NCBI GenBank assembly: GCA_031406385.1
Contig: JANOHI010000012.1
Location: forward strand, 7,110-71,109
Direction of reading: 5' to 3'
Length of the DNA stretch: 64,000 bases
DNA from: Acidimicrobiia bacterium
GTDB taxonomy: Bacteria; Actinomycetota; Acidimicrobiia; Acidimicrobiales; JANYDT01
Shown: positions 10,405-36,077 of the stretch, piece by piece
Numbering within the stretch: the first letter of the stretch is position 1
Layout of the letters: every line of letters begins with the position of its first letter
Translations under genes and position numbers: made by a program
The notes under the pieces: generated by a model
The model's input: the letters and a program-made list of their open reading frames with translations, nothing else
Database searches by the model: none
Told to the model about the DNA's origin: nothing

Positions 10405-10488
10405 CGATCCACCAGCCGAGTTCGAAGGCAACTACTATGCACACCTACGGACTGGAATCAACCTGCCAACCCTAAACACCTAGATGTC

Positions 10489-12701: not shown

Positions 12702-12704
12702 CGG

Positions 12705-16222: not shown

Positions 16223-16833
16223 TTCTTCGCCTTGGCGTCAGGCTCGGCCAAGAGTCCGAGCTCGTGCGCCCGTGCCATCGCTTGGGCCCGGTTGCGCACG
16301 TCGATCTTGCGGAACAACAACCGTTGGGTGTTCTCGACCGTCTTGATGGCGATACCCAGCGTCCGAGCCGTCTGCTTGACCGATTCGCCCCTTTCGATGG
16401 AACGGAGCAGGTCGAGCTCACGCCCCGAGATCGAGATCGGTGAGATCGGTTCTGGATTGCCGCTCCGCAGCGCACCGCACAGCGAATCGACCTGCAACTC
16501 GGTCAGCACGGCCCGACCATCCGCAGCAGTGTGAACCGCCCGAATCAGCGCCTCGACGGTTTCGTCGTCTGCGACCACTGCGAGGGCGCCGGAGCGAACG
16601 GCTCGGAGGAGTTCGGCACCATCCGGTGCGGACCGAACAGCGAGGACGGCCTTCGGGGAACGCGGAGTCAACCCGGCGAGAAGATCAGTGCCTTCAGTGC
16701 CTGTCACGACCACGACATCAGCTGCGTCGGCATCGGCCAGGACCACGTGCTCATCCAACACGCGCGCCAGCAGTGCGACCAGCAGAGGTTGGTTGCCAAC
16801 GACTGCCGCCGATGGCCGCGCCGGCCTCGTCAC
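16219..16833 (-). CDS. LuxR/NarL-type HTH regulator with degenerate receiver-like N-terminal domain
   Basis: The C-terminal HTH reads ISGRELDLLRSIERGESVKQTARTLGIAIKTVENTQRLLFRKIDVRNRAQA. The proposed GTG start at 16833 overlaps the upstream stop (GTGA, 16830-16833). The longer 282-aa ORF would overlap the upstream gene. Confidence 0.75.
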   Translation of the reverse strand: MTRPARPSAAVVGNQPLLVALLARVLDEHVVLADADAADVVVVTGTEGTDLLAGLTPRSPKAVLAVRSAPDGAELLRAVRSGALAVVADDETVEALIRAVHTAADGRAVLTELQVDSLCGALRSGNPEPISPISISGRELDLLRSIERGESVKQTARTLGIAIKTVENTQRLLFRKIDVRNRAQAMARAHELGLLAEPDAKAKN

Positions 16834-17471
16834 GAAGCAACCTCGGTCTGGGTGAGCAGCCCGAGCCGAATTGCTGTGGCGACAGCCTGTGACTGACTCT
16901 GAACCCCGAGGCGTCGGAATACGCGCTGCTTGTGGTTCTCGATGGTTCGGTGACTTACCCCGAGCGCTTCGGCCATGTGCCTGGAGGTGTGCCCCCGGGC
17001 CAGCAGGTGCAATACCTCGAGCTCCCGGGCGGTGAGCGGGACAGGGCCGAGACGGGGCGCCTCCCATCGGCGCAGCGTGCGCTGAGCCGGATCGATCACT
17101 GCCCTCACTAGGACAGCTTCCCCGGAGGCCTCGTCGACGAAGGAGTCGAAACCATCAGACAGCGCGCTCGCCAGTTCGGCGACGGACAGGCTGGCGTGCA
17201 CGCCGACGATACGTGCGGCCGGCGCGGCGGACCGAACCGCCCGGGCTGCAGCTCGCCACTGCGCCTCCGATCCAGTTCGCTGCCCGCCTTGATGGATCAC
17301 CACGATGTCGGGTTCGAGAGCTGCGAGATCGGCCATGGACGTCGGCTCGGTGGCGGCGACGACCTGCAGCCCGGCCGCAACGTCGAAGAGCAACTCGAGG
17401 CCTCGCCGCCACCAGTGAGAAGGGTCGACGATTGCGAGACGGAGGGGAGGCGCCACCGATGACTCTTTCAT
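16830..17471 (-). CDS. LuxR/NarL-type response-regulator-like protein lacking the canonical phospho-acceptor Asp
   Basis: The HTH reads LTARELEVLHLLARGHTSRHMAEALGVSHRTIENHKQRVFRRLGV. The receiver-like N-terminus reads RLAIVDPS..PDIVVIHQGG, where DIVVIH replaces the usual D-x-V-L-x-D. Confidence 0.8.
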   Translation of the reverse strand: MKESSVAPPLRLAIVDPSHWWRRGLELLFDVAAGLQVVAATEPTSMADLAALEPDIVVIHQGGQRTGSEAQWRAAARAVRSAAPAARIVGVHASLSVAELASALSDGFDSFVDEASGEAVLVRAVIDPAQRTLRRWEAPRLGPVPLTARELEVLHLLARGHTSRHMAEALGVSHRTIENHKQRVFRRLGVQSQSQAVATAIRLGLLTQTEVAS

Positions 17472-22737: not shown

Positions 22738-23913
22738 TCAAGGACGAAGCGCGGACCGATACTGCTCGATGTAGACGTCGGCGATAGCCGACCAGTCGAA
22801 GGCTTCCGCTCGCGTTCGACCAGCAGCGCCGAGCGCCAATCGAAGCGCAGGGTCGTTCGCGAGGTGACGAAGCGCACCGGCAAGAGCGCCGACATCATCT
22901 GCAGTGACGAGAATGCCCGTCACTCCGTCGAGCACGATCTCCGGAACACCACCGACGCGCGACGCGATCACGGGACGTCCTGATGCCATCGCTTCGAGGT
23001 TCACGATCCCCATCGGTTCATGGCGAGAGGGTAGGACGAAGATGTCGCAGCCTCGGAACAGTTCGGCGGTTCGCCTCCGATCCGTTCTGCCCACGAGAGA
23101 GACCGAATCATCAAGGCCGAGTTCGGCCGCAAGGGCAGCGAGTTCTGATCGTGCCGGGCCATCGCCGGCGAGAACCAACTCCCGTGTGTCGGCCAACCCC
23201 GACTCGGCGAAGGCACGAAGCAGAACATCGAAGCCTTTGTTATTGACGTGACGTCCGATTGCCAGGAGATAGGGGCGTGACCGCCGTTCCGGAGCAGCGC
23301 TGTCGAACTCGGACAGCGTGATCCCGTTGTAGACGACGTGTCCGCGATCACCGAGATCGACTCCGCCGAACGAGGTGCCCTCCGCGAGGGTTTGTGCGCT
23401 GCAACCGGTCACGACGTCGGCATGTCGCAGCAGGTGGCGCAGGAGCTTGGGCAGGAAAGGCGTCCGCTGATACACGCCGGTCGCATCCATCGTGAGCTCA
23501 CCCTGCATCGACACGACCAATGGCAGCCGCAACAGTCGGGCGGCGATGAGAGCATAGAGTCCGTTGTTCGACACGCACTGCACGTGGACGATTTCGCTCT
23601 GATGCTCACGAAGCGAGCGCACGATGCTGATCACATCGGGAACGAGATGGACGACGAATCGGACTGTCGTCTTCCACGATCCGATAGGTGGAAGGAAGCG
23701 CCAGCGGCGCACCTCGATGCCGTCGAGGATCTCTCGGCCGGGGAGGCTTTTTGGATAGCGCGTGGTGGCAACAACGACGTTCGAACCGCGATTGGTCAAC
23801 TCGATGGCGAGGCGTCTCGTGAGCTCCTCCACCCCGCCAAGGTGCGGATGGAAGGCACTCGAAAAGATCGCGACGTTCGGGACGGGCGAGCCAACGTGGG
23901 GTTCAGCCATCAT
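22738..23913 (-). CDS. glycosyltransferase family 4
   Basis: 391 aa. It carries VAIFSSAFHPHLGGVEELTRRLA and HEPMGIVNLEAMASGRPVIASRVGGVPEIV. Confidence 0.9.
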   Translation of the reverse strand: MMAEPHVGSPVPNVAIFSSAFHPHLGGVEELTRRLAIELTNRGSNVVVATTRYPKSLPGREILDGIEVRRWRFLPPIGSWKTTVRFVVHLVPDVISIVRSLREHQSEIVHVQCVSNNGLYALIAARLLRLPLVVSMQGELTMDATGVYQRTPFLPKLLRHLLRHADVVTGCSAQTLAEGTSFGGVDLGDRGHVVYNGITLSEFDSAAPERRSRPYLLAIGRHVNNKGFDVLLRAFAESGLADTRELVLAGDGPARSELAALAAELGLDDSVSLVGRTDRRRTAELFRGCDIFVLPSRHEPMGIVNLEAMASGRPVIASRVGGVPEIVLDGVTGILVTADDVGALAGALRHLANDPALRLALGAAGRTRAEAFDWSAIADVYIEQYRSALRP

Positions 23914-24188
23914 GACTGCTTGATCGGCGTCGATGTCGACTGTCCGACGAACATCCCAGGTGCAAAGTCCATGAGGGCCCCAGAGGCCGCGGCAATCGTG
24001 ACGCCGTCATCGAGCTCACGTCGAGCGACCAAATGGATCGTGCCGCCGCGATCGATTTGGATGCGGTACCAACGACCAACTTGCACTCCACCCGGTGCTG
24101 ACCAACCCGGCTGGGTCGCATGCAGTGTTTGAGCGAACACGCGAGCGATCAACCGCTTCGCCCATGAGCGGTGCAATCGAAGGTTCAT
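23910..24188 (-). CDS. hypothetical small protein (92 aa)
   Basis: The ORF overlaps by 4 nt both the upstream giant GT gene (24185-24188) and the downstream GT4 gene (23910-23913). I recognise no motif. Confidence 0.45.
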   Translation of the reverse strand: MNLRLHRSWAKRLIARVFAQTLHATQPGWSAPGGVQVGRWYRIQIDRGGTIHLVARRELDDGVTIAAASGALMDFAPGMFVGQSTSTPIKQS

Positions 24189-27100
24189 TGCCCCATGTTT
24201 TCCGCCGCGCCGCGACGAAGTGGCCCTGTTGGAACGGTTACACGGCGGTAGATCGCTTCGACCTGTGCGGCAATCCGCTCCGGAGCGAACTCAGCCGCGG
24301 TCACTCGCCCACCATCGCCCAGTCGCCGACGACGGCCCGGGTCTGCCTCGAGCATTCGCAACGTCCGTGCCAGCGCGCCCACGTTGCCAGGTTCGACCAG
24401 GATCCCATCGACACCTTCGGTAATGATCTCGGCCGGACCGCCAGCGTTGGAGGCGACCACGGCGATCCCCGCAGCCATACCCTCGACCACGACCTGACCG
24501 AATGGCTCCGGGATGACCGACGCATGCACCAACACGTCGAACTCACCTAGGAGCGTTGCCACGTCGTCGACGAAGCCGCGGAAGCTGACGCGATCCGTGA
24601 TGCCAAGCTCTTCGGCAAGCGGGGCGAGCGTGTTCGCGAAATCATCCTCTCCGAACATGGCCGAGCCGGCGATGACTGCCCGGGCCGGGCCATTCGGGAA
24701 GGCCTCAGCAAAGGCACGCAGGAATATGTCCTGACCCTTCCACGGGGCGAGACGTCCGACCATCCCCACCGTGAACGGTCGATTCTCGGAGGCACGCGGT
24801 TGGAATGATCCAGGGACAGCGTCGAACACCACTGTGCTGGGCGCCACGTAGCGGGTCCGCCCTGCCGCCCCCATCGTTCGCATCGTTGCCGTGGAATTGG
24901 CGATGATCGCATCGGGCACGAAGCGGGACATGGCGCGAATGGCGACGACCGCGACGCGGGGCAGATAGTCGTCGGCAATCCGGTCACGGACATGCCAGAT
25001 CAGCTTTGACCGAAGGCCGATGCTGACGATCGACCCGTACACCATCGCTTTGAGCGAGTTCGTGTGGATGATATCGGGATCGAGCTCTCGCACGCGGCGA
25101 CGCAGAACCCGGCAGTAGCGAAGGGTTCCGAAGATGGCGCCAAAGGGCAGTCGTCCCGGCACGACGGCGGCTCGGTGCAGATCGTTCGTCCGAGGATCGA
25201 GTGGAATCACCTCGACCGGGACGCCGGCCTCGCGGAGAAGTCCAACGAAGTCGCCGTCCTCGGCGAGCAGCACGGTCGGCGAAACCGATGTGAACCCCGA
25301 AAGTAGCCGAAGCAACGCGAGCTCACCGCCCGAACGTTTGGCGCAGTGGTCCAGGTAGACGACACGGAACGTGTCGACCGCATCGGTGTCGATCGTCGCA
25401 TCTCTCGCCTCTTCAAGCACGGCAGCAAACTCCGTTGCCCGTCCGCGCCATGACGGCGCTTCGCGATCGGTTCGCGGTGGCGGATTTTCCAGCGTGCGCG
25501 CGACTGCATCGGCGAACGACGATCTATCGGCAATGGTCACGTGTTCGGCGATTTCACGGAATCCGGCGACCGGAGTCGCCACACACGGGCGGCCGACGGC
25601 CAGCACCTCGTAGGCCTTGATCGGATCGAGGCTCTCGGTGAACGGGCTCACGACATGCGGAATGATGATCACGTCGGCGTGCTGCAGGTATGCCGGGACA
25701 TCGTCATAGGGTCGCGGACCAAGGAGAGCAACGTTCCTCACAGTCGCCAGCAATGCTCGGTCCTGTCGTCGAAGCGAGTCCGGTCCGACAAACACGAATG
25801 ACACGGCCGGTAGTTCGCGAGCTGCGTTCACCACCAGCTCGACATCGACTCGTTCTCGATGCAGAGAACCGACATAGACCGCTGTCTGCATCCCGCTCGG
25901 AGGGAGATCCGTTGGGCGCGGACGAGGCCGCTGGAAGTGCTGAGTATCTACTGCGTTCGGAATCAAGACAACGGAGCGGCTGGACCCTCGGCGCGCTGCG
26001 AGTTCGGGAGAGCAGACAACCACGCGGTTCGCTCGCCGGAGCAAGATCGATTCATACGTCCGGAGTCGATCGAGGTTCCGATCGGTGCCTCCGAAGTCGA
26101 GCCAATCGTCGGTGATGTCGTAAACGACTGGCCACACGGTCTCGTCGGTCAACGGAGTGAGGGACGAATCGTTCAGCCACAAGACCGGATCGACGAAGCC
26201 GAGCTGATTGGCAACTCTCCGAACCTGGCGGGAGAGACCTCGATCCGTCCACGGCCAAACTCGTCGTGGGAGGAGCTTCGTTGGCTGGAACAGCGTGACC
26301 TGCTGGTAACCCTCGGGAGATGCGAGGCGGCCACGAGGGCGCGAACGACGAAACCCTGACCGAACCGCGTGGAGAGCATCGTGCGCCGGTTCCACCCAGA
26401 GGACACGAGTAGCGGGATCGGCTTGCGTCAGTTCGCGGACGAGGAACTGGTTGCGGCGCCACACGTCGTCCCACGGCTCGAGGCTGGCGAGGATGATCTC
26501 GTTTCCTCTCTTGATGTCGGGAACGTGGACGAGAGTCGGATGGTGCCGTAAGGCATGCGCCGAGCGTCGGAGGTTGGCGCGGTCGACGTCACCCGTCGGT
26601 CCACGTCGGACGATGGAACGCAACCCATGGCGAACGACGGCTCCCAGCCGATAGCTCACCAGGCCAGCGGTCCCGTGGTGCTTGAACACGAAGCGTTCGG
26701 AGCCGCGCACGAAGTGCTCGAACGTGGCCTCCCCGAGTGCCTTTCCACTGACACCGCCAATGTGGTCGACGGCCGCAGCCTCGACCAGTTGCGCGCGGTA
26801 CCCGAGATCAAACGCGCGACGGCAGAAATCCGCCTCCTCGCCGTAGAGCCAGAAACTCTCGTCGAGTCCGCCCAACTTGTCCCAGAGCGAGCGAGTGGTG
26901 AGAAGACAAGCGCCGACGACGAAACCGGGGCCATCTCGGCGCGAACGTGGACCGGGAGCGAGAGCCGTGCGCCATTGGCGACGCGGCGACGGGAACGGCC
27001 AGAACGGCCGCTGCTCAGAACCGTCGGGCATGATCAGACGAGGACCGGCGATCCCAACGCCGTCCTCCTTGAGCGCTTCGACCAGCAACGTGAGGTTTGC

Positions 27101-27421
27101 CTCGTCGACGACGGCGTCCGGGTTGAGAAGGAGCACGAGTTCCCCATCACCGAGCGCGACACCTTGGTTGGCTGCGACAGCGAACCCACGGTTGGTGGTG
27201 TTGCGCACAACTGTTGCCCCAAAGCGATCGGCCACCGATGCGGACTCGTCGTTCGAGGCGTTGTCGACGACGATCACCCGCACCCAACCCGGCAACGAAC
27301 GCAGGCACGCCGGAAGATCGACAGCGCTTTCGTAGGTAACGATGACGACGTCACAGGATCGTGTCTTGACGCGAGCACTGTCTCGTAGAACTCGAGTTGG
27401 CGGCGAGCGATCTCCGACCAT
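24185..27421 (-). CDS. three-module glycosyltransferase fusion (GT2 + GT-B/GT4-like + GT4)
   Basis: 1078 aa. The N-terminal module reads CDVVIVTYESAVDLPACLRSL..VIVVDNASNDES (GT2). The middle module has TESLDPIKAYEVLAVGRPCVATPVAGFREI. The C-terminal module has EPFGQVVVEGMAAGIAVVASNAGGPAEII. The start is uncertain because the annotated 5' end overlaps the upstream GT4 ORF. Confidence 0.85.
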   Translation of the reverse strand: MVGDRSPPTRVLRDSARVKTRSCDVVIVTYESAVDLPACLRSLPGWVRVIVVDNASNDESASVADRFGATVVRNTTNRGFAVAANQGVALGDGELVLLLNPDAVVDEANLTLLVEALKEDGVGIAGPRLIMPDGSEQRPFWPFPSPRRQWRTALAPGPRSRRDGPGFVVGACLLTTRSLWDKLGGLDESFWLYGEEADFCRRAFDLGYRAQLVEAAAVDHIGGVSGKALGEATFEHFVRGSERFVFKHHGTAGLVSYRLGAVVRHGLRSIVRRGPTGDVDRANLRRSAHALRHHPTLVHVPDIKRGNEIILASLEPWDDVWRRNQFLVRELTQADPATRVLWVEPAHDALHAVRSGFRRSRPRGRLASPEGYQQVTLFQPTKLLPRRVWPWTDRGLSRQVRRVANQLGFVDPVLWLNDSSLTPLTDETVWPVVYDITDDWLDFGGTDRNLDRLRTYESILLRRANRVVVCSPELAARRGSSRSVVLIPNAVDTQHFQRPRPRPTDLPPSGMQTAVYVGSLHRERVDVELVVNAARELPAVSFVFVGPDSLRRQDRALLATVRNVALLGPRPYDDVPAYLQHADVIIIPHVVSPFTESLDPIKAYEVLAVGRPCVATPVAGFREIAEHVTIADRSSFADAVARTLENPPPRTDREAPSWRGRATEFAAVLEEARDATIDTDAVDTFRVVYLDHCAKRSGGELALLRLLSGFTSVSPTVLLAEDGDFVGLLREAGVPVEVIPLDPRTNDLHRAAVVPGRLPFGAIFGTLRYCRVLRRRVRELDPDIIHTNSLKAMVYGSIVSIGLRSKLIWHVRDRIADDYLPRVAVVAIRAMSRFVPDAIIANSTATMRTMGAAGRTRYVAPSTVVFDAVPGSFQPRASENRPFTVGMVGRLAPWKGQDIFLRAFAEAFPNGPARAVIAGSAMFGEDDFANTLAPLAEELGITDRVSFRGFVDDVATLLGEFDVLVHASVIPEPFGQVVVEGMAAGIAVVASNAGGPAEIITEGVDGILVEPGNVGALARTLRMLEADPGRRRRLGDGGRVTAAEFAPERIAAQVEAIYRRVTVPTGPLRRGAAENMGQ

Positions 27422-28518
27422 CGGTACTGGCCTGCGTGAGCAATCCCGTCATCGCGCATCTTCTCCCGGCGAGCGGGGTCTGCGGCCACGGCGTTCATTG
27501 CGTCAACCCACGCGTCGACCGATCCGGGCGTCACAAGGAGCCCCGCAGCTCCGACCACGTCGGGCAGTGCTCCGCTGTTCGATGCAATCACCGGCACGCC
27601 GCAGGCCATGGCTTCGACGGCGACGCGCCCGAACTGTTCCACCCAGGACGGGGTGTCGAGCGAGGGGACAACGAGAACGTCGAACGAGCGGTAGACCTCG
27701 GCGACCTCATCGGGTGGACAGAACCCGTGCACCGTGACTCGGGCCTCAAGACCGAGACGAACGATTTGGTCCTGGAGCGAAGGCGTCATGGGACCGTCGC
27801 CGACGATCGTGAGTTGTGCATCCTCGAGACGAGACATCGCCTCTATCACGATGTGCACACCCTTGTGCTGTTCGAGCCTGCCGACGTAGCCGAACATGAT
27901 CGATGAGCCAGAGGACCGCCCGCGCGTCGACGGGTGAAACCGGTCGACGTCGACACCGAGGCCGAGCAGACAGACTTCGCCGCGAAGACCGCGTTTGACG
28001 AACAACTCGCCGGCACGCACATTGCACACATGGACACCATCGGCTCGACGCAAGGCCAAGCTCTCGATCCAGCGGAACGGCATCGGAAACCTCTTGTCCA
28101 AATTCTGTGCCCCGTAAAACACCAGCTTCGCCTTCGACCGTGTGACTGCCATTAACATCATGATTTCGAGGGCGGCAAGGCTGGCCGGCTCTTCGTGGAC
28201 ATCGACGAGATCGGGATGCCGACGCAACTCGCGCAGAAGCGGCAGCGGGTTGTACACAAAGACATAGGGGTGACGGCCGACAGTTCGAGCCGGAACAACG
28301 AACACCGCATCCTCTTTGGCCTCGAGCGCCACGTCGCGTCCGCCTTCGTTCCACCGGCGCGGCGCAATGGTGTTCAGATCAATACCGCGGCCGCGCAACT
28401 GGCGGTCACGTTCCCGCCAGGCTCCGACCACTGCGGAGTGGTAGATCCGCAGCACTCGAGTGGCGCGATCCGTCGAAGCATTCGTCACAGCGCAGGCAAA
28501 TGACGGTTGTGTTCTCAT
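27274..28518 (-). CDS. glycosyltransferase family 4
   Basis: The start is ATG at 28518 (MRTQPSF..). It carries RVLRIYHSAVVGAWRERDR and PSWVEQFGRVAVEAMACGVPVIASNSGALPDVV. The 3' end overlaps the next gene by up to 148 nt. Confidence 0.8.
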   Translation of the reverse strand: MRTQPSFACAVTNASTDRATRVLRIYHSAVVGAWRERDRQLRGRGIDLNTIAPRRWNEGGRDVALEAKEDAVFVVPARTVGRHPYVFVYNPLPLLRELRRHPDLVDVHEEPASLAALEIMMLMAVTRSKAKLVFYGAQNLDKRFPMPFRWIESLALRRADGVHVCNVRAGELFVKRGLRGEVCLLGLGVDVDRFHPSTRGRSSGSSIMFGYVGRLEQHKGVHIVIEAMSRLEDAQLTIVGDGPMTPSLQDQIVRLGLEARVTVHGFCPPDEVAEVYRSFDVLVVPSLDTPSWVEQFGRVAVEAMACGVPVIASNSGALPDVVGAAGLLVTPGSVDAWVDAMNAVAADPARREKMRDDGIAHAGQYRWSEIARRQLEFYETVLASRHDPVTSSSLPTKALSIFRRACVRCRVGCG

Positions 28519-28544
28519 GAAAAGACCTGTGGCGTTGCCAGTCG

Positions 28545-29999
28545 ATGAGTCGAGGACGCAAGAATCAGCCTCGGCTTCTCCCTGCCCGAGTGACGGACCC
28601 CCTTCGCTACAGTAGTGGCGTGCTCGCTGGTGCCCTATCCGGATGGAACCGGACCAACCAGTGGCGCATTCGTCGGGCAGGCACACTCGCCGCAGCGATT
28701 GTGGCGCTGCAAGTCACGGTCGGTTGGTTGCTCTCCAACGACATGAATGCGGCGATCGCCGCTTCGGTTCTCATTCCCGCAGTTGCCGTGCTCGTCATTC
28801 GTCCGCAGTGGTTGTGGATTACTGCCTTCCCGGCGAACTTTCTTTACTGGCGTGTCGGCCCGACACGCATCGACCTCAGCCTTGCGGACGTTACCCTCGT
28901 CCTGGCCGCTATCGCCGCGCTCCCGTCCGTCCCCTGGCGGTCCCCGATGTTGCACCGGATCGAACGGCTCTACGCCGCGTACCTGGGGATCATGTCGATC
29001 GCGTTCTTCGCTGTGCCGGAGCGCGAGACCCTAATTTCGTTGATGCAGCGAAGCTCAATTTTTCTGGGTGCGGTTCTCATCGGGGCCGCAGTTGGCAACC
29101 GCGGCAAGGCGAAGGCCGCGCTGGCCGCGCTGCTCCTCGGTTCGAGTGCTGTCGCAATCGAAGCAGTACGCCGCTCCGTTCAGTCTGATTTCGAGCCCGC
29201 CTATCCGTTCGGAATCCAAAAGAACGCGGCCGGCGCCATAATTGGTATGAGCATTATCGTGTCGTTGGCGGCATTCACCATCTTCCGTCGCACAGCGACC
29301 AACCGAGTAGCCATCGGACTCTGCCAATTGCTTCTGATCTGCGGGCTCCTCGCTACAGGAGCACGAGGTGCCGCCGTCGCCCTTCTGGCAACGCTCCTCG
29401 TCGCCGTGTTGCGCAATGAGCCAGGCGCTCGTCGGCCGATCGCTATTGCAGTCCTCGGATGTGTCACCGTCGTGGCCATGGCAACCATAAGATCGGTGGA
29501 CTCGGAAAAGACGAACGATCGCTTCTCCAGTGGCAATAGCCGCTTGATCACGTACGAAGCGGCAATCAAGCTGTGGCAACAGGAGAAGCTCACCGGTATC
29601 GGGATCAAGTACTGGCGAAATCCGGCATATGCCGACAACACGGGCTTCGGCGAGCCCCACAACGTCTTCGTCTCATCGCTGACCGAGACTGGCGTGGTCG
29701 GACTCGTTGCGATCCTCCTGCTGATGGGCGGCACGCTCTTGATCGCGATGCGTCCACGAACCCCGCTCCATCGAATGGCATTCTTGCTCATCGTGTACCG
29801 ACTTGTTGAGAGTCAGTTCGGGATCCTCTGGGTTGCCGTCGGAGGGTCCCTTCCCTGGCTTGTTCTCGGTGCGGCGATCGGCGCAGCGTATGCCGATACC
29901 GATCGACAACGCCTCGCGGCGGAGTCGGAAACAGTTTCAACAAACGTGCTGCGCCCGCGAATCTACCGACCGCGCACCCTGCCAACTGCGGCGAGATAA
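28545..29999 (+). CDS. O-antigen ligase / Wzy-like polytopic membrane protein, copy 1 (start uncertain)
   Basis: It is predicted to have about 10 or more TM segments. The characteristic loop reads LLICGLLATGARGAAVALLATLL and the periplasmic loop reads ITYEAAIKLWQQEKLTGIGIKYW. Confidence 0.8.
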   Translation: MSRGRKNQPRLLPARVTDPLRYSSGVLAGALSGWNRTNQWRIRRAGTLAAAIVALQVTVGWLLSNDMNAAIAASVLIPAVAVLVIRPQWLWITAFPANFLYWRVGPTRIDLSLADVTLVLAAIAALPSVPWRSPMLHRIERLYAAYLGIMSIAFFAVPERETLISLMQRSSIFLGAVLIGAAVGNRGKAKAALAALLLGSSAVAIEAVRRSVQSDFEPAYPFGIQKNAAGAIIGMSIIVSLAAFTIFRRTATNRVAIGLCQLLLICGLLATGARGAAVALLATLLVAVLRNEPGARRPIAIAVLGCVTVVAMATIRSVDSEKTNDRFSSGNSRLITYEAAIKLWQQEKLTGIGIKYWRNPAYADNTGFGEPHNVFVSSLTETGVVGLVAILLLMGGTLLIAMRPRTPLHRMAFLLIVYRLVESQFGILWVAVGGSLPWLVLGAAIGAAYADTDRQRLAAESETVSTNVLRPRIYRPRTLPTAAR

Positions 30000-31153
30000 G
30001 CCTCTCGAAAGGCAGACGAACCTCCGTGGGGTTGGGGAGCGGGGAGAGCGATCAGTTCGGTGGTCGAAGGAAACCGTCGCCGCCATGGGTGCCCCGAATC
30101 CGTTCGGAACACACCGACTTCCGTCTTCACGCGACCGACAAGTTGTCGAACGGATTCACGGGAGTTTGCTCTGGTCGCGCCACAGAGCAAGTGACCGGTG
30201 AGCGAACCGCCATGCCAACGCTCGGGCGGACGGACTCGGTCGAGGCCGGCAACGACATCTGGCCAACGCCCCCGACCGCACATCGACGCTTCCAGGCGCT
30301 GGTCCCACGGCACCACGCCGAGAGCCCGGCGGACCTTGCCGAGCATGACGCCGACGGGTAATCCGATTCGTTGTTGGTGCGCCCGCCGCACAACCTCGTC
30401 GAAGTCCATCGCCGGAATCGCACCGGCGAGGCTGAGGTCGCGCATCCACGAAAGCTTTTGCCCGCCGGCAAGACATGCATGGAGCGCGAGGTGGAGGAAG
30501 GTATCGACCGGGTCGAGCGTCGGCACATCAATCCGGGGGAGGAGATGAGCCCTGACTCGACGCTCCAGTGCCGCACCATCGCTGAACGCGAATTGCGAAC
30601 GAAGGGTCGAGTCGTAGAGAAGGCTCCAGTGAAGGTCGACAACGACGCGCGTTGAGAGAGCGAAGTTGAGCTCACCCTTCAACTCGTGCAGGACAAGCTC
30701 CCAATCCGTTTCCAGCCCAGAACCGCCGAGGTTCTCGATCGCCTCTACCGCGGTAGTGAAATCAGCACGTTCGACAAGGACGTCGAGATCGGCGTAGCTA
30801 CGCAAGTCGTTGCGTCGGTAGAGACGCTCGGACAGCACAGGGCCCTTCAGCGTCAGCCATCGAACCCCGGCGCCATCGAGCACCTTCGCAAGTCGAGCCA
30901 ACTCGAGGATCATCACGAGGTGGTGCATCTTCCAGAACTCGTAGATCGACCGGAGCTGTTCTCGTAACGACTCCGGAATGTCCGCGTCGACGAGGCCCAG
31001 GTGCACGGCCATCGAGATGCCGTGATGGCTGGCCGCTTCAGCCACGTGTTGCAGACTGCCCCGTGCGTCGTCAACCAGTTCGGAGGGGACGGGCTCGCCA
31101 TCGCTCATCGTGCACGCGACGAGCAGACGGCCGAGGGCGCGTGCTTCACCCAT
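29963..31153 (-). CDS. nucleotidyltransferase family protein (NTP_transf_5 / PsmN-like type)
   Basis: WLTLKGPVLSERLYRRNDLRSYADLDVLV is the hallmark block of the uncharacterised nucleotidyltransferase family often seen next to HprK-like kinases. The start overlaps the upstream GT4 stop by 8 nt. Confidence 0.75.
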   Translation of the reverse strand: MGEARALGRLLVACTMSDGEPVPSELVDDARGSLQHVAEAASHHGISMAVHLGLVDADIPESLREQLRSIYEFWKMHHLVMILELARLAKVLDGAGVRWLTLKGPVLSERLYRRNDLRSYADLDVLVERADFTTAVEAIENLGGSGLETDWELVLHELKGELNFALSTRVVVDLHWSLLYDSTLRSQFAFSDGAALERRVRAHLLPRIDVPTLDPVDTFLHLALHACLAGGQKLSWMRDLSLAGAIPAMDFDEVVRRAHQQRIGLPVGVMLGKVRRALGVVPWDQRLEASMCGRGRWPDVVAGLDRVRPPERWHGGSLTGHLLCGATRANSRESVRQLVGRVKTEVGVFRTDSGHPWRRRFPSTTELIALPAPQPHGGSSAFREAYLAAVGRVRGR

Positions 31154-32192
31154 GCGAAGCCAACTCCGACTCGATCAGCGCGACGTAGGAATTGGCGACC
31201 GTGGCGAAGTCGTATCGCTCGATTTGTCTCAGGCCGTGCGTCTCGAGAGTCGCTCGGAGGTCATCGTCGACAAGCAGTTCGACCAATGCCCGACCGAGCT
31301 CCTTGTCGGATGCAAGCCGTCCGAGGCGGCCGTCTTCGAGGACTTCACGTGACCCTTGGTTCGGCGTGGCGACGACGGCTGTGCCGCTGAGAAGCGCCTC
31401 GATGTAGGGAACGCCGAAACCCTCGTACGTGCTCGGCAGACAGAACACCCACGCGCGTCGGTACCGATCCGCGAGCTCAGCATCGTCGATCCGCCCGAGT
31501 ACCGAGACCCCTGGCGATTCCGGAGCGTCGGTGCACACCATCCACAGCTGGGCGTCGGGGACACGAGGACGCACGTAGTTCGTGAACGTCTCCACCAGAA
31601 GCCGCCCACGTTTGCGGCTGTCGTAGGTTCCGACGAACAGAATCGTCGGAACCGCTTCCTTCTCCTGCGGCCGATCGCCAGCACCACCGACGCCGAACAG
31701 CGAGGTGTCAACGCCGTTGGGGATCACCCGATGAAGCCAGGGGTAGAACCGTATCGAGTTCTTCGAAACCCCGACGACGATGGGCGTGCGAACCGACGAG
31801 ACGGCCTCGGTGACGCCGAGCGCAAACATGCGCAGCCGACCGAGCCACGTTGACTGGTACCGGGCCTCGTCAAAGCACGAGCCGTGCATCGTCCGAATGT
31901 GCACCGGAACGGCATGGCGCCGCACGAAGTGGTCGTCACCTTGCGCAATGAGGGCGTCGAACCCGCTGAGGTCGATACGTCGCATCGCGAGCCCCCACCG
32001 GAAGCTCCGCATCCGGCCGTGCTGCTCGAGCTGCCGATGTTCGTACAACGCGTCAACAGTCTTCGCCGCCGGGCTGAACATCGTGACGTCATGGCCGGCG
32101 GACAGAAGGGCGTTCGCCAGCCGGTGGGCCATCCACCCGACGCCGATCTTGCTGCTCGATGGGAGGTAGAGCGAGGTCATCGCGATCTTCAT
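31146..32192 (-). CDS. glycosyltransferase family 4
   Basis: It carries MKIAMTSLYLPSSSKIGVGWMAHRLA and YEGFGVPYIEALLSGTAVVATPNQGSREVL. Confidence 0.85.
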   Translation of the reverse strand: MKIAMTSLYLPSSSKIGVGWMAHRLANALLSAGHDVTMFSPAAKTVDALYEHRQLEQHGRMRSFRWGLAMRRIDLSGFDALIAQGDDHFVRRHAVPVHIRTMHGSCFDEARYQSTWLGRLRMFALGVTEAVSSVRTPIVVGVSKNSIRFYPWLHRVIPNGVDTSLFGVGGAGDRPQEKEAVPTILFVGTYDSRKRGRLLVETFTNYVRPRVPDAQLWMVCTDAPESPGVSVLGRIDDAELADRYRRAWVFCLPSTYEGFGVPYIEALLSGTAVVATPNQGSREVLEDGRLGRLASDKELGRALVELLVDDDLRATLETHGLRQIERYDFATVANSYVALIESELASHG

Positions 32193-32205
32193 CGGTCGTG
32201 TGCCG

Positions 32206-34014
32206 TCACTGCGTGGTCAGAGCGGCGCTCTCCGTCGCCGGGTCGCCACCTGGTTCCGACTTCGATGCATCCGGGCGAACCATCGAGGTCGCTGCAGGAT
32301 GGCGAGAGGGTGCGCGTGCGACGCCTCGCACGGGTTGCTTCTCGCTCTCGCATCGAGTGACAACGACGCCGATTGGTGAAGCACCGGCGAGGCGGAGTTG
32401 TTTGACCGCTCGCTCGGCGTCCGCCGCTCGCGTCACGTTTCGAGACAGCACAACAAGCGTTGCGTCGGCGAGCGACGCAACGACCGCGCCATCGGCCGTC
32501 GACATCGGGGCACAGTCGAACACCACGATGTCGGCCATCGAGGCCAGTTGCGAGACCAGTGAAACGGCATCGGGCGAGGAGAGGCGCTCCGCGCTGGCCA
32601 CCGCTGTTCGAGACGCCGGGAGAAGGCGCAATCGGGCGACTGTCGGCGAGCGGAGGAGGTAGGAACCGACCACGTCCTCCGCGTCGTCCTCAGGCGTCGC
32701 ATCCTCGCCAAGCTCGAGGAGGTTCCGAACTCGAAGACTCTTCGCCGCCGAACCCAGTTCGAGAACGTCCGCCCGCTCGCTGAACTGCTCGCGGCGCTTG
32801 AGCTCGGTCCAGTCGCCCAGCAACTCATGGAGCCCTGGCTGATCAACGATGCTGAACCAGCGGCCGAGGTCCGAGCCGCGGATGTCGGCCGACACCAGGA
32901 TGGTCCGAAGACCCGAGCCGGCGAATGCCGCCGCCAGATTGGCGGCAACCGCGGTCTTATCGCCGCCGGCATCGGGGCTCGTGATCGCCAGTGTCGCCAA
33001 CCGGTGATCGGCACGCTGAAACAGGACCGCAGTACGGAGCTTGCGAAAGGCTTCTGCTCCCGCACCAGTGGGATCGTGGAGAACGAGGAGGCGACGCTGG
33101 TGGGCGCGGCGGCGACGCCGATCACTTCGTCGAAGACGGCTCCGCGGCGTCAGGCGCGGAAGCTCACCGAGGACCGGCAAACCGATGAGCTCCTCGGCCT
33201 GTTCAACGCTGCGCAGCCGACCATCGAGCAACGTCCGAAGGGCAACGAGTCCGGCGCCTAGCACGAATCCGATCGACGCCCCGAGCAGCCCACGGCGCAC
33301 CGGCGACGGGCTCGCATCGCGCGTCACGGTGCCCGCATCGAGGATCACCATCGGCCGACGCTGCACGGCAATCTGGTTCAGCAGCCGCTGCTGACTGGCG
33401 AACAGTGCGGTGTATTGCGCCAACGCCGTGGACTGCTGCGCAGTAAACAGCGACGTGTCTCGGCCGTTGGTGGTGGCGTCGAGGAGGCGCTGATTGATCT
33501 TCTCGAGCCGCGTTTCGAGGCTGGTGATCTGCGTGTCGAGCTCGACCGAGCGTTCCCGAAGGCTTCGGGAAATGTCGTTGTACTTCGAACCCTCGAACAC
33601 CGAGGCCACGGTGGTCACGCGGGCGAACGCCTGTTGGGGGTTGACGCTTTGCGAACGGAGATTGATCAGTCCGCTCCGAACATCGACGGAAGCCCTGACC
33701 GATCTCCGCAGACCGTCGACCGTCTCGCCGGGCAGCTCCTTGACCACCGTCGAGAGGAATTCACTCCCTCCGAGCACCAGGGTCTGGCGCCGCAGGAACG
33801 GCTCGGTCAGTCCAGAGGTCGGGTCGGCGACGCTTGGATCAGCGGTCGTGCTGCGGACGTCGTACACCAGCGAAGCCGTGGCGACATACGGAGGATCGGG
33901 AGCGCGGGACGCGAAATATGCCGCAGCTACAGCGACGGTGAGCACGGACTGCACGAGGATCCATCCGTGGCGTCGGAGGACGGCGAGCAGCTTGAGTAAC
34001 TGTTCTTGATCCAT
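32206..34014 (-). CDS. Wzc-like co-polymerase / P-loop ATPase, copy 2, without C-terminal Tyr cluster
   Basis: The ATG at 34014 overlaps the upstream stop (TGATG). It has an N-terminal TM plus a coiled region. It carries Walker A TSPDAGGDKTAVAANLA, A' LVSADIRGS and B DIVVFDCAPM. The C-terminal 50 aa contain no Tyr. Confidence 0.8.
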   Translation of the reverse strand: MDQEQLLKLLAVLRRHGWILVQSVLTVAVAAAYFASRAPDPPYVATASLVYDVRSTTADPSVADPTSGLTEPFLRRQTLVLGGSEFLSTVVKELPGETVDGLRRSVRASVDVRSGLINLRSQSVNPQQAFARVTTVASVFEGSKYNDISRSLRERSVELDTQITSLETRLEKINQRLLDATTNGRDTSLFTAQQSTALAQYTALFASQQRLLNQIAVQRRPMVILDAGTVTRDASPSPVRRGLLGASIGFVLGAGLVALRTLLDGRLRSVEQAEELIGLPVLGELPRLTPRSRLRRSDRRRRRAHQRRLLVLHDPTGAGAEAFRKLRTAVLFQRADHRLATLAITSPDAGGDKTAVAANLAAAFAGSGLRTILVSADIRGSDLGRWFSIVDQPGLHELLGDWTELKRREQFSERADVLELGSAAKSLRVRNLLELGEDATPEDDAEDVVGSYLLRSPTVARLRLLPASRTAVASAERLSSPDAVSLVSQLASMADIVVFDCAPMSTADGAVVASLADATLVVLSRNVTRAADAERAVKQLRLAGASPIGVVVTRCESEKQPVRGVARAPSRHPAATSMVRPDASKSEPGGDPATESAALTTQ

Positions 34015-35444
34015 CAGCGACGTGCTTCCTCGACGAGCGGAGAGGGGAGAGTCACGGACTCCCACCGTTGGAACAGGTTAGGTGGTGACGGTCGCTCCTG
34101 ATTCGCCTCGCCGATCCCGATGGCCAGCCAGCTGATCGCGCCGAGTTGAATGGCGAGGACCTGGAGAGGGAAATCGATCAGTGCGTGCACGCCTACGACG
34201 CCGAGCGCGACCTGCGAGGCGATGAGAAGGAGTGATGGTCGACCGCTCGACGATCGAAGGGCCCGAACGGCGCAGAACAAGGCGAACCCGGCGAACACTG
34301 CGCCCGGCAGACCCCATTCGAGGAGGAACTGGAGTGGGTCGTTGTGGGCGTTCATCCACATTCCCGTCGGATTTCCGGGTCTCCATGGGGTCACGATCCA
34401 GCGGCGAAAGACGCCGGGGTCGCGGTATCCGATCTCGGTCGGGAAGACGATCTTGAAGCCTCCCGGTCCCACGCCACCAGAAGCGTCTCGCCAGATCGAG
34501 GCAGCGACGCGCCACACGGCGAACCGAGCTGACACGCCGTCCGGTTCCGCGGCTGCAGCCCGCCACCGTTCCAGGTTGGCCAGAAACGCCGCAAACCCAA
34601 TGAGCGCGATGGCGAGGACGCCGGCACGGTCAGTCGTCCTCGTCGGCACCGGGCCAGCCCTTCGGCGGAGCCTCGCCCCGAAAACGATGGCGAGAAGGGC
34701 GCTCAGCACGATGCCCGCCTTCGAAACGTGGAAGACGCAACCGAAGGTCGTCGCCGCAACCAGACCCATGGCAACCCGTCGCTTCACCCCGGTCGAGGAA
34801 AGCGCGAGCACGATGCCCGCCGGCAGACAGAGGTTGAGGTACGCCGCAGCGTTGGCGTGGTAGGCGAACGGGCCGAAATGAGAACCCTCGCCCGGTAGCT
34901 GAGGGAAGGCGACCGGGCCGACGCCGAATCGGTCCAGGGTCCCGAAAAGGCCCAGCACGGCACCGTTGGCCGCCAACACCAAGACGAGGGCCCGGCGGAA
35001 CTCGACGCGTTGGGAAAGATCGATCAGCACGGCGGCCCCCAGAGCGAGGAGTGTCAACGTCCGCAGAACCGCCACACTCGCGTTGCGGTCGACACTGCCG
35101 GGCCATTCGGCGAGCAGTGGTTGCCGCTCGATGAGTCGCAGGGTCACCGGGTCATAGACGGTCCGAGCGTTCAGAGCGAGAAACCAACCCCACGCCAGGG
35201 CGAGGGTGACCCCGACAAAGACGCCGAATGGCCCGCGAGGCCATCGTTGCCTGAGGAGAAGTGCGAGGACCCACAGCCCGAGGCTCACGCCCAGCCCGAT
35301 CTCGATGAGTTTCGTCCGCGTTGGGGTGATGGGCGTCTGCAACCAGGGTGCCGTTGCGACCGTCGCGGCGAGGGCCGCGAACGACGCACCTTCGACCCAG
35401 CCCGCAACCCGAACACGAGCCGCCACGTCGGCAGACAGGTTCAT
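34014..35444 (-). CDS. O-antigen ligase / Wzy-like polytopic membrane protein, copy 2
   Basis: The ATG at 35444 lies 1 nt after the B2 stop (TGAcATG). It is multi-TM, with the loop VFHVSKAGIVLSALLAIVFG and NAHNDPLQFLLEWGLPG. Confidence 0.75.
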   Translation of the reverse strand: MNLSADVAARVRVAGWVEGASFAALAATVATAPWLQTPITPTRTKLIEIGLGVSLGLWVLALLLRQRWPRGPFGVFVGVTLALAWGWFLALNARTVYDPVTLRLIERQPLLAEWPGSVDRNASVAVLRTLTLLALGAAVLIDLSQRVEFRRALVLVLAANGAVLGLFGTLDRFGVGPVAFPQLPGEGSHFGPFAYHANAAAYLNLCLPAGIVLALSSTGVKRRVAMGLVAATTFGCVFHVSKAGIVLSALLAIVFGARLRRRAGPVPTRTTDRAGVLAIALIGFAAFLANLERWRAAAAEPDGVSARFAVWRVAASIWRDASGGVGPGGFKIVFPTEIGYRDPGVFRRWIVTPWRPGNPTGMWMNAHNDPLQFLLEWGLPGAVFAGFALFCAVRALRSSSGRPSLLLIASQVALGVVGVHALIDFPLQVLAIQLGAISWLAIGIGEANQERPSPPNLFQRWESVTLPSPLVEEARR

Positions 35445-35445
35445 G

Positions 35446-35892
35446 TCAGCCGAGCAGGGGCTGATCGAACGCGTGGAGCTGCGCCACGTGCTGGGGGTCT
35501 TCGTTGATGTCGGTTCCGGCCACCCGGACCCACGCATGTGCACCGAGACCTTCCTGCGTCGGGTCGACGCCGAGCAGCACCTGGGCGTCGACGCCTCGGC
35601 GACGCAGAAGCGTCCAGAGGGTGAGTGATCGGGGCAGACAGACTACGTTTGCCGGAGCGAGCCGGGTGGCGAGGAGCACGCCCGTTCCGATCCTTCGGGC
35701 GCGGTGAACGTCGTAGCGGTCCGACGGGTGGATCCTCCCGCGTCCGCCCAGCCGGACGGCGAGTTGACGTGCTGGGATCGTCCCTCGCCGGTGAAGCACG
35801 CGTTCGAACAGCGGGTTGAGGGCGAGGGCGGCGAGGAACGCGAGCTGGCTCCCCCGGGGCAGCGCGACGAAGCGACGGAGGCGTGAACGCAT
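35446..35892 (-). CDS. lasso peptide biosynthesis B2 protein (transglutaminase-like protease), copy 2
   Basis: VVCLPRSLTLWTLLRRRGVDAQVLLGV...GAHAWVRVAGTDINED gives the same Cys/His/Asp layout as the 1869-2327 product. ATG at 35892 gives 148 aa, and longer starts up to 35988 are possible. Confidence 0.8.
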   Translation of the reverse strand: MRSRLRRFVALPRGSQLAFLAALALNPLFERVLHRRGTIPARQLAVRLGGRGRIHPSDRYDVHRARRIGTGVLLATRLAPANVVCLPRSLTLWTLLRRRGVDAQVLLGVDPTQEGLGAHAWVRVAGTDINEDPQHVAQLHAFDQPLLG

Positions 35893-36077
35893 CCTGGTCT
35901 GAGGGACCGAAGGGTCGGTCGACCCGACGTTTCTCATGCCCGGGCAACGGTAGTCGCCGGAATTCCGCCGGTACGATGGGCCGAGCATGAGTTCCCCTCA
36001 ACGCATCGGGTACTCGCCGGTAGGAACCGAACCGCCTGTTCCTCGGCCGACCCCCCGCCGATGACCGAGGGGCAACG

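Follow-up and report, generated by a model that had tools for sequence, protein, structure and literature searches.

The window, i.e. the whole stretch of 64,000 nucleotides analysed here (contig JANOHI010000012.1), comes from an Acidimicrobiia metagenome-assembled genome (MAG), and its positions 1-38800 form one large locus in which two lasso-type gene sets (set 1 and set 2) stand together with genes for the assembly of envelope glycans. This raises the question of whether peptide and glycan are built in a common pathway or by neighbouring genes whose products never meet. It arises from B2-2, the second of two lasso-type leader peptidase genes, which heads a minus-strand string of five genes that continues with an O-antigen-ligase-like membrane protein (Wzy_C-2), a co-polymerase paralogue (Wzc2), a family-4 glycosyltransferase (GT4e) and a nucleotidyltransferase (NTP_transf_5). 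We put the probability at roughly 0.6 that the B2-2 operon and set 2 make up one pathway, which is coupled to a module of NTP_transf_5, GT4e and a second ligase-like gene, Wzy_C-1. The predicted product is most likely a lasso-type peptide that bears a glycan on its phosphorylated C-terminal Ser.

For the analysis of junctions and stop codons, the minus strand was read directly at positions 29963-35988. Families were assigned by profile searches of the open reading frames (ORFs) of the window against Pfam and NCBIfam, and related loci (designated by L numbers) were compared by tblastn of the window proteins together with pre-computed Pfam tables. The sister MAG referred to below is represented by the contigs L007 and L024, between which the five-gene string is divided.

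A predicted operon of a lasso-type peptidase and glycan genes

The string comprises the following genes.

35446..35937, minus strand: B2-2, lasso-type leader peptidase (transglutaminase-like Cys protease) of 163 aa; PF13471, NF033537, Cys85/His119
34014..35444, minus strand: Wzy_C-2, O-antigen-ligase/polymerase-family membrane protein; Wzy_C 36.9 bits against a cutoff of 31.7, about ten hydrophobic segments
32206..34014, minus strand: Wzc2, degenerate co-polymerase/tyrosine-kinase paralogue; CbiA 31.3 bits, sub-threshold tyrosine-autokinase and chain-length-determinant matches
31146..32192, minus strand: GT4e, family-4 glycosyltransferase; Glyco_trans_1_4 73 bits
29963..31153, minus strand: NTP_transf_5, nucleotidyltransferase of the PsmN family type; PF14907 120.3 bits against a cutoff of 31.2

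The stop codon of B2-2 (TGA, 35448-35446) is followed by the single base 35445 and then by the ATG of Wzy_C-2 at 35444 (1-nt gap), and the stop codon of Wzy_C-2 (TGA, 34016-34014) has its A in common with the ATG of Wzc2 at 34014 (TGATG). Between the stop codon of Wzc2 (32208-32206) and the ATG of GT4e at 32192 there is a 13-nt gap, and the stop codon of GT4e (31148-31146) falls within ATGGGTGA, where NTP_transf_5, which ends at 29963, starts at 31153 (8-nt overlap). All four junctions are exactly as the first-pass annotation had given them, and its five family assignments were borne out by the profile searches. The three downstream junctions (TGATG, 13-nt gap and ATGGGTGA) recur in contig L024 of the sister MAG.

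Comparison with orthologues backs the start codons of the four genes other than B2-2, the alignments of Wzc2 and NTP_transf_5 beginning at query residue 1, but it does not back the B2 start initially placed at 35892. The ATG at 35937 is the only B2-2 start that is conserved in the window, L007, L006 and L004, and it yields a protein of 163 aa; the starts at 35892 and at 35988 (longest ORF) were rejected, both being missing in the closest relative, L007. A TACNGT hexamer ends 9 nt upstream of the B2-2 ATG and is conserved in the same four sequences (window 35937-35960, minus strand). It stands there without a Shine-Dalgarno-like sequence, and this placement would suit a 5′ leader that is very short or absent. 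A consensus scan, which has low power in high-GC Actinobacteria, found no promoter-like site and no terminator-like site at any junction, the hairpins that it returned lying within coding sequence and having poor T-tails.

Co-directional genes of the window as a rule meet at tight or overlapping junctions (964/1869/2324, 11616-11619, 12701-12705), and these therefore show operon membership and are nothing exceptional in themselves. Judged by its sequence, the five-gene string is a genuine operon of the Acidimicrobiia genome. The proposal that the five genes are expressed as one unit is supported by the tight co-directional packing and by the same junctions in the sister MAG, whereas the functional merging of two pathways that had been read into it is an argument from gene neighbourhood. 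Nor does the string provide the strongest evidence for such a merging, as had been claimed; the string that leads from a precursor and cyclase gene into two GT4 genes in the window (14103 to 10489) and the single string of locus L021, which are both described below, are better.

B2-2 and the second lasso-type gene set

B2-2 scores well above the cutoffs of PF13471 (73 bits, cutoff 26) and of the NCBIfam model NF033537, lasso_biosyn_B2 (64.7 bits, cutoff 33), and Cys85 (in VVCLPRS) and His119 (in AHAW) are invariant across 10 sequences, B2-1 of set 1 among them. Given these matches, the retained catalytic residues and its orthology to the B2 of compact clusters (see below), its designation as a bona fide lasso-type B2 holds. 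Its close relatives are few and all from Acidimicrobiia, with identities of 97% for the sister MAG and of 74-76% for the next relatives, and it is about 30% identical to B2-1. In the window, 20 kb separate B2-2 from an Asn-synthetase-like cyclase, a PqqD-type B1 and a precursor with a penultimate leader Thr. These belong to set 2, which comprises precursor-2, AsnS2, HPrK2, PqqD2 and two LuxR-type regulators and is listed here together with GT4b, GT4a and an ABC exporter.

13915..14103, minus strand: precursor-2, lasso-type, 62 aa, MNNSSSKLPYEAPAIQTLGSVQDLTL followed by AQSPLFPKSDGFYSVQGGPLQPGDLPNGVGGFQFAS; NF033521 lasso leader 19.2 bits against a cutoff of 19
12705..13883, minus strand: AsnS2, Asn-synthetase-like, putative lasso cyclase without N-terminal domain; PF00733 55.8 bits
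10489..12701, minus strand: GT4b and GT4a, directly downstream of precursor-2/AsnS2; Pfam
14636..15634, minus strand: HPrK2, HPr-kinase-like Ser kinase; Hpr_kinase_C 39.4 bits, orthologues in all related clusters
15950..16222, plus strand: PqqD2, leader-binding B1 chaperone; sub-threshold lasso PqqD matches, orthologues 35-58% identical in related loci
16219..17471, minus strand: two LuxR-type regulators; GerE domains, same pair in the compact clusters L003 and L011-L013
4328..6280, minus strand: ABC exporter (MsbA/McjD-like); ABC_tran, 54% identical to the ABC gene coupled downstream of the L002 B2

The same partner genes directly adjoin the orthologous B2 in L003 and L011-L013, and they adjoin a more distant B2 (34-39% identity over a short stretch) in L021 and L023. 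Since the short cyclase of set 2 matches those of the relatives' clusters and B2-2 is so distant from B2-1, we assigned B2-2 to set 2 and regard its present position as derived. We infer from this that a second lasso-type pathway (set 2) has B2-2 as its leader peptidase, most likely for the cleavage of precursor-2.

From precursor-2 through AsnS2 and GT4b to GT4a (14103 to 10489), the genes are separated by gaps of 31 and 3 nt, followed by a 4-nt overlap. This is a second peptide-glycan string, in which the peptide gene is coupled to two glycosyltransferase genes. Orthologues of GT4a and GT4b are interleaved with those of HPrK2 and PqqD2 in L018.

Homologues of precursor-2 adjoin orthologous short cyclases in L002, L003, L011-L013, L020, L021 and L023. 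The precursors of the related loci have the leader Y-x-x-P-x-[LIV]-x-x-x-G-x5-T-x in common, their core residue 1 is Ala (Gly in the second L020 copy), and all but one copy end in Ser. Loci with an NTP_transf_5 of the window type show [ST]-D-G-hydrophobic at core positions 8-11, and the compact clusters keep only the Asp at 9. If cleavage occurs after Thr-Leu, the Asp stands at core position 10 in the window, in L002 (13994-14215) and in Rhodococcus L023 (13131-13271), and at core position 9 in L003, L011-L013, L020 and L021. A 10-residue ring falls outside the known sizes of 7-9, unless cleavage takes place one residue later.

AsnS2 comprises 392 aa without a GATase-like domain, and it gives no match to NF033535 and 25.6 bits to NF033561 (cutoff 300). 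It is 36-45% identical to the short cyclases of the related clusters (45% to the short enzyme of L021), 30% to that of Rhodococcus and 26% to AsnS1 of the window. Asn-synthetase-like enzymes of 350-420 aa that lack the N-terminal glutaminase-like domain form a clade with members in the window, L002, L003, L011-L013, L018, L020, L021 and L023. Always located beside lasso-type precursors in Actinobacteria, this clade is possibly a new cyclase subclass. Between precursor-2 and HPrK2, a Cys-rich 172-aa ORF (14146-14664, plus strand) matches the YcgN family weakly and has a 30%-identical counterpart at the same place in L002.

The nucleotidyltransferase and the glycan-assembly genes

The motif D122-x-D124 of NTP_transf_5 is invariant in 29 homologues; the metal-binding D-x-D of PsmN is D134/D136 (PMC6993621). 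An AlphaFold2 model of the protein (predicted local distance difference test score, pLDDT, of 91) matches the folds of MenT1, LnuA, ANT(2'')-Ia (4xje/5cfs) and the phosphotransferase FKRP, and the ANT(2'')-Ia entries are those reported for the PsmN fold (PMC6993621). The earlier description as a PsmN-like nucleotidyltransferase can thus be kept on the strength of PF14907 and the predicted ANT(2'')-Ia-like fold, the likeness being one of family and fold. PsmN, an uncharacterised nucleotidyltransferase, is required for the addition of one or two hexoses to the Ser phosphate (PMC6993621), and HPr-kinase homologues phosphorylate the C-terminal Ser of lasso precursors (PMC8498205). NTP_transf_5 co-occurs with an HPr-type kinase and with a precursor ending in Ser.

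The stretch from set 2 to the B2-2 operon contains an IS256-family transposase, GT61, Wzc1, three GT4 genes, a GT2-GT4-GT4 fusion and Wzy_C-1, and on the other side B2-2 is flanked by a DUF4012 gene.

28545..29999, plus strand: Wzy_C-1, ligase/polymerase-family membrane protein; Wzy_C 64.3 bits against a cutoff of 31.7, about nine hydrophobic segments
22738..28686, minus strand: GT4c, GT2-GT4-GT4 fusion and GT4d; Pfam, orthologues in L004, L018 and L024
20557..22329, plus strand: Wzc1, canonical co-polymerase/tyrosine kinase with Tyr cluster; orthologue immediately upstream of B2 in L002/L009
36078..38372, plus strand: DUF4012 membrane protein, divergent from B2-2; PF13196 103 bits
38369..38824, plus strand: small secreted Pro/Thr/Ser-rich protein with an AFTG/LAXTG-like sorting signal, a transmembrane (TM) segment and an Arg tail; translation, gene called in L001

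Both Wzy_C proteins match PF04932 (Wzy_C) above the cutoff, have a gap in their hydrophobic segments at about residues 290-373 and contain the loop motif H-N-x9-G-x-x-G (residue 367 in Wzy_C-2), which occurs in <1% of shuffles. This motif is typical of O-antigen ligases and of pilin O-oligosaccharyltransferases, some of which act on a C-terminal Ser. Wzy_C-1 is convergent with NTP_transf_5 and overlaps its 3′ end, and the same convergent overlap is found in L004 and L024. It is the widely conserved partner, being 38% identical to the Wzy_C beside NTP_transf_5 in L020/L021, and it matches the TfpM model weakly (24.9 bits, cutoff 600). Wzy_C-2 is lineage-specific, with orthologues only in L006/L007/L024 and no counterpart in L020/L021. 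GT4e is a conserved partner immediately upstream of NTP_transf_5 (63% identical in L002 and L018, 60.5% in L021) and, at 60-63%, surpasses every lasso gene in conservation.

Wzc2 is 34% identical to Wzc1, with which its SADIRG and VVFDCAP motifs align, and it consists of a Wzz-like N-terminal domain with two TM segments and a cytoplasmic P-loop domain in which Walker A′ and B are present. In the Wzc2 clade, Walker A reads GGDKT, SGDKT or GGDKS as compared with DGKT in Wzc1 and L002, i.e. all three orthologues have Asp for Gly, and the ATPase domain contains an insert of about 35 aa. No Tyr was found in the last 40 residues of Wzc2 nor in the tail after the ATPase domain, where Wzc1 has five (YYGPYGSAYSPY). 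The name Wzc paralogue 2, under which the gene was first listed, is therefore fair for a co-polymerase paralogue, but the altered Walker A and the lack of a Tyr cluster speak against a usual working tyrosine autokinase.

DUF4012 genes are conserved beside B2 or PqqD in L001, L002 and L004-L009, and they are a typical part of actinobacterial exopolysaccharide (EPS) loci; in the EPS locus of Bifidobacterium longum, a DUF4012 gene lies between the priming glycosyltransferase gene and wzz (PMC5412050). The gene of the LAXTG-like protein overlaps the DUF4012 stop codon by 4 nt. Secreted Gly/Thr-rich proteins with a twin-arginine-type signal are encoded beside PqqD in L022 (3716-4261), L025 (12464-13012) and L026 (13145-13729), i.e. 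in loci that have NTP_transf_5 and glycan genes and no B2, and two of the three end in an LPFTG/LAFTG-type signal. The LAXTG-type protein and these similar small secreted proteins may be acceptors of glycosylation.

Peptide-glycan linkage across related loci

At 42-47% B2 identity (L003, L010-L013), the gene is part of compact clusters that also encode a kinase, PqqD, the short cyclase, the precursor, a second kinase, two LuxR-type regulators and an ABC protein, and no glycan genes were found within about 10 kb on either side by Pfam (L003 and L011) or tblastn. At 54-55% identity (L002, L009), a Wzc1 orthologue, B2 and the ABC gene are consecutive, with a 1-nt gap and then an 11-nt overlap, and a DUF4012 gene follows PqqD on the opposite strand (in L002, PqqD overlaps its start); in L002, a block of 15 kb also takes in the short cyclase, precursor, kinase, Wzy_C-1, NTP_transf_5 and GT4e. 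At 74-97% identity (window, L004-L008, L024), B2 is divergent from DUF4012 and is followed by Wzy_C-2 (in part of the loci), Wzc2, GT4e (again in part) and NTP_transf_5, which meets the convergent Wzy_C-1. The string lacks GT4e in L006/L008 and both Wzy_C-2 and GT4e in L004/L005, and the core at the level of the lineage is B2, a Wzc-like gene and NTP_transf_5 beside DUF4012. A profile of the five-gene order, which had been suggested as a check, thus finds the complete order in the sister MAG alone (on L007 and L024, where the junctions are of identical types), whereas smaller units of it are conserved more widely.

In other Actinobacteria, Wzy_C, GT4 and NTP_transf_5 genes lie beside genes for precursor, cyclase, PqqD and kinase. 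L018 shows PqqD2, HPrK2 and the short cyclase interleaved with orthologues of GT4a, GT4b, GT4c, GT4d, GT4e and the GT2-GT4-GT4 fusion. A single string in L021, from an Actinomycetia MAG, runs from Wzy_C through GT4, NTP_transf_5, precursor, short cyclase, B2 and a kinase-like gene to PqqD, the first two junctions being 4- and 11-nt overlaps, and a convergent ABC gene comes after it. Eight glycosyltransferase genes in L020 are followed by Wzy_C, NTP_transf_5, precursor, short cyclase and a second precursor. Cultured strains of Rhodococcus (L023) have Wzx and then NTP_transf_5 beside the ABC gene, precursor, short cyclase, B2 and PqqD, and keep other glycosyltransferase genes. In L022, L025 and L026, NTP_transf_5 and PqqD stand between glycosyltransferase, Wzy_C or Wzx genes, a kinase-like gene is present in two of the three, and no B2 was found within the stretch seen. 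Wzx was found in L023 and L026. A metagenome scan with the NTP_transf_5 alignment returned two loci only, one of which is L018.

Wherever the context of a homologue of the window-type NTP_transf_5 was examined, glycan genes as well as lasso or PqqD/kinase genes flank the homologue. Perfect tracking of NTP_transf_5 with glycan genes was rejected on account of a distant PF14907 gene in the compact locus L011 and a B2-nucleotidyltransferase fusion in L014, and the association holds only for the window-type clade.

Lasso-glycan gene linkage is thus conserved over several different gene orders, and its conservation through rearrangements indicates that the linkage is old and not accidental. By comparison of the loci, NTP_transf_5, the upstream GT4 and the convergent Wzy_C-1 emerge as an accessory module, which is carried by relatives of the lasso subfamily in several Actinobacteria. 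The same comparison indicates that in the lineage of the window B2 moved into a glycan operon, to which a second Wzy_C and a degenerate paralogue of Wzc were later added. A chemical coupling of peptide and glycan is what this linkage suggests.

The first lasso-type gene set and the surroundings

Set 1 is a compact plus-strand string, next to which a precursor candidate was located.

964-1869, plus strand: HPrK1, HPr-kinase-like
1869-2327, plus strand: B2-1
2324-4048, plus strand: AsnS1, full-length cyclase-like Asn synthetase
4077-4220, minus strand: candidate precursor-1, MVYKTPTLKRFGTLSSLTL followed by GQGGSCPDGGGMNVTQVGGMSDCGQSGP (Gly1...Asp8, two Cys), between the set-1 cyclase and the ABC exporter

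Candidate precursor-1 gave no profile match. With a B2 of its own, set 1 does not require B2-2. Just upstream of HPrK1, an ORF at 3-941 (plus strand) shows weak matches to an arginine-methyltransferase oligomerisation domain; its C-terminal part looks PqqD-like by eye and may be a fused B1 for set 1.

A 1334-aa ORF at 6400-10475 (plus strand) has a weak glycosyl-hydrolase-core match only and is overlapped by a 407-aa ORF in another frame. The IS256/Mutator-family transposase (17999-19279, plus strand; 396 bits), which lies between the LuxR genes and GT61, carries many apparent substitutions, and the GT61 ORF overlaps it. To the right of the locus, an unrelated block (40368-63537) encodes a Rieske oxygenase, a threonine dehydratase, three P450-like proteins, an acyl-CoA ligase, two APH/EcKL-type kinases, an MFS transporter, a methyltransferase and an ABM monooxygenase. 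An Rfam scan of the entire window gave zero matches, and sequence searches of the PDB with AsnS2, NTP_transf_5, Wzy_C-2 and B2-2 gave no significant match.

Proposed pathway and alternative explanations

Gene content, orthology and predicted fold were determined here, and we infer every chemical step of the following pathway from them. PqqD2 and B2-2 would remove the leader of precursor-2 after Thr-Leu, the short cyclase would close a ring from Ala1 to the Asp, and HPrK2 would phosphorylate the C-terminal Ser. NTP_transf_5 would then put the first sugar on the Ser phosphate, as PsmN does in pseudomycoidin, and GT4e, probably together with other GT4 enzymes, would lengthen the glycan. The ABC exporter would carry the product out, and a Wzy_C-family protein may add or ligate more glycan outside the membrane. 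Co-transcription would keep protease, tailoring enzymes and envelope machinery in step.

Several observations weigh against this pathway. A distance of 21 kb, which includes an IS256-family transposase, separates B2-2 from its presumed precursor, and the arrangement around B2-2 could in part be recent scrambling. The ring Asp of precursor-2 at core position 10 is outside the known range of 7-9. The N-terminal domain found in characterised lasso cyclases is missing from AsnS2, which also scores far under the lasso cyclase cutoffs, and ring formation is therefore not assured. The chemistry of PsmN itself was left unresolved in the study that serves as the precedent (PMC6993621). A priming phosphoglycosyltransferase and Wzx are missing from the picture, in that the scanned ORFs of the 64-kb window, which cuts the left edge of the locus, gave no Bac_transf, Glycos_transf_4 or Polysacc_synt match. 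A very distant PF14907 gene precedes the ABC gene in the compact cluster L011, which has no glycan genes. Finally, a 570-aa B2-NTP_transf_5 fusion of an Acidobacteriota (L014, 9766-11478, plus strand) is located beside PqqD and an HPr-kinase-like gene, and its neighbours are large adhesin genes and a penicillin-binding protein gene, with no glycan genes.

One alternative is that an ordinary cell-surface polysaccharide locus and a lasso cluster were shuffled together, in part through mobile elements, and share promoters and regulators because both serve, e.g., biofilm formation or competition, while their products never meet. The transposase within the locus, a gene order that is different in each lineage examined, the position of DUF4012 beside a chain-length determinant, which is the standard arrangement of actinobacterial EPS loci, and the tight junctions, which are the default in the window genome, all fit this explanation. 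However, orthologous GT4e, NTP_transf_5 and Wzy_C-1 stay beside lasso genes through at least five rearrangements in distantly related Actinobacteria, and B2, PqqD, precursor and cyclase are each coupled to a different glycan gene in different lineages. Moreover, the NTP_transf_5 family has already been shown to be needed for the addition of sugar to a lasso peptide (PMC6993621). We therefore consider a neighbourhood without shared chemistry unlikely.

A bolder possibility goes beyond the proposed pathway and holds that the product is a covalent peptide-polysaccharide conjugate. Here, the exported phospho-Ser peptide with a core made by NTP_transf_5 and GT4e would be the acceptor for a WaaL/TfpO-like ligation by Wzy_C. 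The polymer would come from the other glycosyltransferases, the second Wzy_C and the Wzc proteins, and the MsbA-like ABC transporter would be responsible for export, so that the logic would be that of lipopolysaccharide with a ribosomal peptide in place of lipid A-core. We regard such a conjugate as rather improbable. It would represent a new glycoconjugate class and a new role for lasso-type machinery, and only its demonstration would make the system categorically new.

Alternatively, the Wzy_C proteins might be O-oligosaccharyltransferases that act on the LAXTG surface protein or on other envelope proteins, the lasso peptide being separate and at most lightly modified. Two findings that speak for such protein acceptors count at the same time against the pathway proposed here, i.e. 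the secreted Thr/Pro-rich LAXTG-type protein whose gene overlaps the DUF4012 stop codon, and the similar secreted proteins adjoining PqqD in L022, L025 and L026, where NTP_transf_5, glycosyltransferase and Wzy_C or Wzx genes occur without a B2. The motif H-N-x9-G-x-x-G in both Wzy_C proteins and the weak match of Wzy_C-1 to the TfpM O-oligosaccharyltransferase model point in the same direction, although the 24.9 bits of this match are far under 600. Protein acceptors leave unexplained, however, why NTP_transf_5/GT4e directly precede the precursor gene in L020/L021 and why a leader-binding PqqD and an HPr-type kinase are retained, and we consider this reading a serious but improbable alternative.

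That B2-2 is a spare or decaying paralogue or serves set 1, its place in the operon having no functional meaning, is suggested by the second B2 (1869-2327) and the second precursor candidate of the window, but it is very improbable because in set 1 a separate B2 is coupled to the kinase and cyclase of that set, B2-2 has kept its catalytic residues and 97% identity to the sister MAG (74-76% to the next relatives) at only about 30% identity to B2-1, and its orthologues cluster with those of set 2 and not of set 1.

Returning to the pathway in which B2-2 and set 2 act together with the glycan module, we see a gene set, conserved in Actinobacteria, that joins the complete lasso toolkit to machinery for envelope glycans (Wzy_C, a battery of GT4 enzymes, Wzc and DUF4012). 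If the pathway holds true, the tailoring of ribosomally synthesised peptides with post-translational modifications (RiPPs) would reach glycans that are long or ligated, a function would be found for the uncharacterised families PF14907 and DUF4012, and the short Asn-synthetase-like enzymes would be a new cyclase subclass. The related cluster in cultured Rhodococcus makes the model testable at the bench.

Comparison with known systems

In the literature searched, we found no description of lasso genes interleaved with Wzy_C, Wzc and DUF4012 genes, and glycosylated lasso peptides are there of two kinds only, each of which needs a single tailoring enzyme. Surveys have noted kinase, nucleotidyltransferase and GT2/EpsH genes near lasso clusters of Firmicutes. 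A paper on a Sphingomonas exopolysaccharide was rejected as a precedent, having no peptide or lasso component.

Among the closest known systems are the clusters of pseudomycoidin (psm, Bacillus pseudomycoides) and of paeninodin (Paenibacillus dendritiformis). The locus resembles these systems in its split B1/B2, the Asn-synthetase-like cyclase and the ABC exporter (PMC6993621, PMC8498205), and likewise in the HPr-kinase homologue for the C-terminal Ser, the nucleotidyltransferase for hexose on the phosphate and the precursor ending in Ser. Unlike in these systems, the cyclase is short, the phylum is Actinobacteria, and the genes are spread over >30 kb among about ten glycosyltransferase domains, two Wzy_C, two Wzc-like proteins and DUF4012, with the nucleotidyltransferase gene coupled to GT4 and the B2 gene coupled to Wzy_C/Wzc genes.

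Another close system is that of the davasins (igt, Streptomyces davaonensis), in which a polysaccharide-type membrane enzyme places several sugars on one Ser of a lasso peptide (PMC11912497). As actinobacterial lasso peptides with several sugars on a single Ser, they resemble the product proposed here (PMC11912497). They differ in that a single deacetylase/GT2 fusion acts on the mature lasso peptide, and in that igt is without kinase, nucleotidyltransferase, Wzy_C, Wzc and DUF4012 genes (PMC11912497).

With the TIGR04352/TIGR04355 systems of HprK-related kinases A/B, the locus has the conserved neighbourhood of an HPr-kinase-like and a PqqD-family gene in common, whereas the kinases of the window reach 29-32 bits against cutoffs of 200 for these models and are thus non-members. 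PilO/TfpO and TfpM are Wzy_C-family O-oligosaccharyltransferases that glycosylate the C-terminal Ser/Thr of pilins. The locus is similar to them in having a Wzy_C-family enzyme with the motif H-N-x9-G-x-x-G and, as the candidate for the modified acceptor residue, a C-terminal Ser. Unlike in the pilin systems, the acceptor would be a small RiPP, possibly modified via a phosphate-sugar, and the score to TfpM is far under its cutoff.

With Wzx/Wzy-dependent loci for EPS or capsular polysaccharide, such as that of Bifidobacterium longum 105-A, the locus has in common a DUF4012 gene beside a chain-length determinant/Wzc gene, many GT4/GT2 genes and Wzy-family proteins (PMC5412050). In contrast to such loci, no priming phosphoglycosyltransferase or Wzx was found in the scanned ORFs of the window, and lasso maturation genes are here placed in operons between glycan genes.

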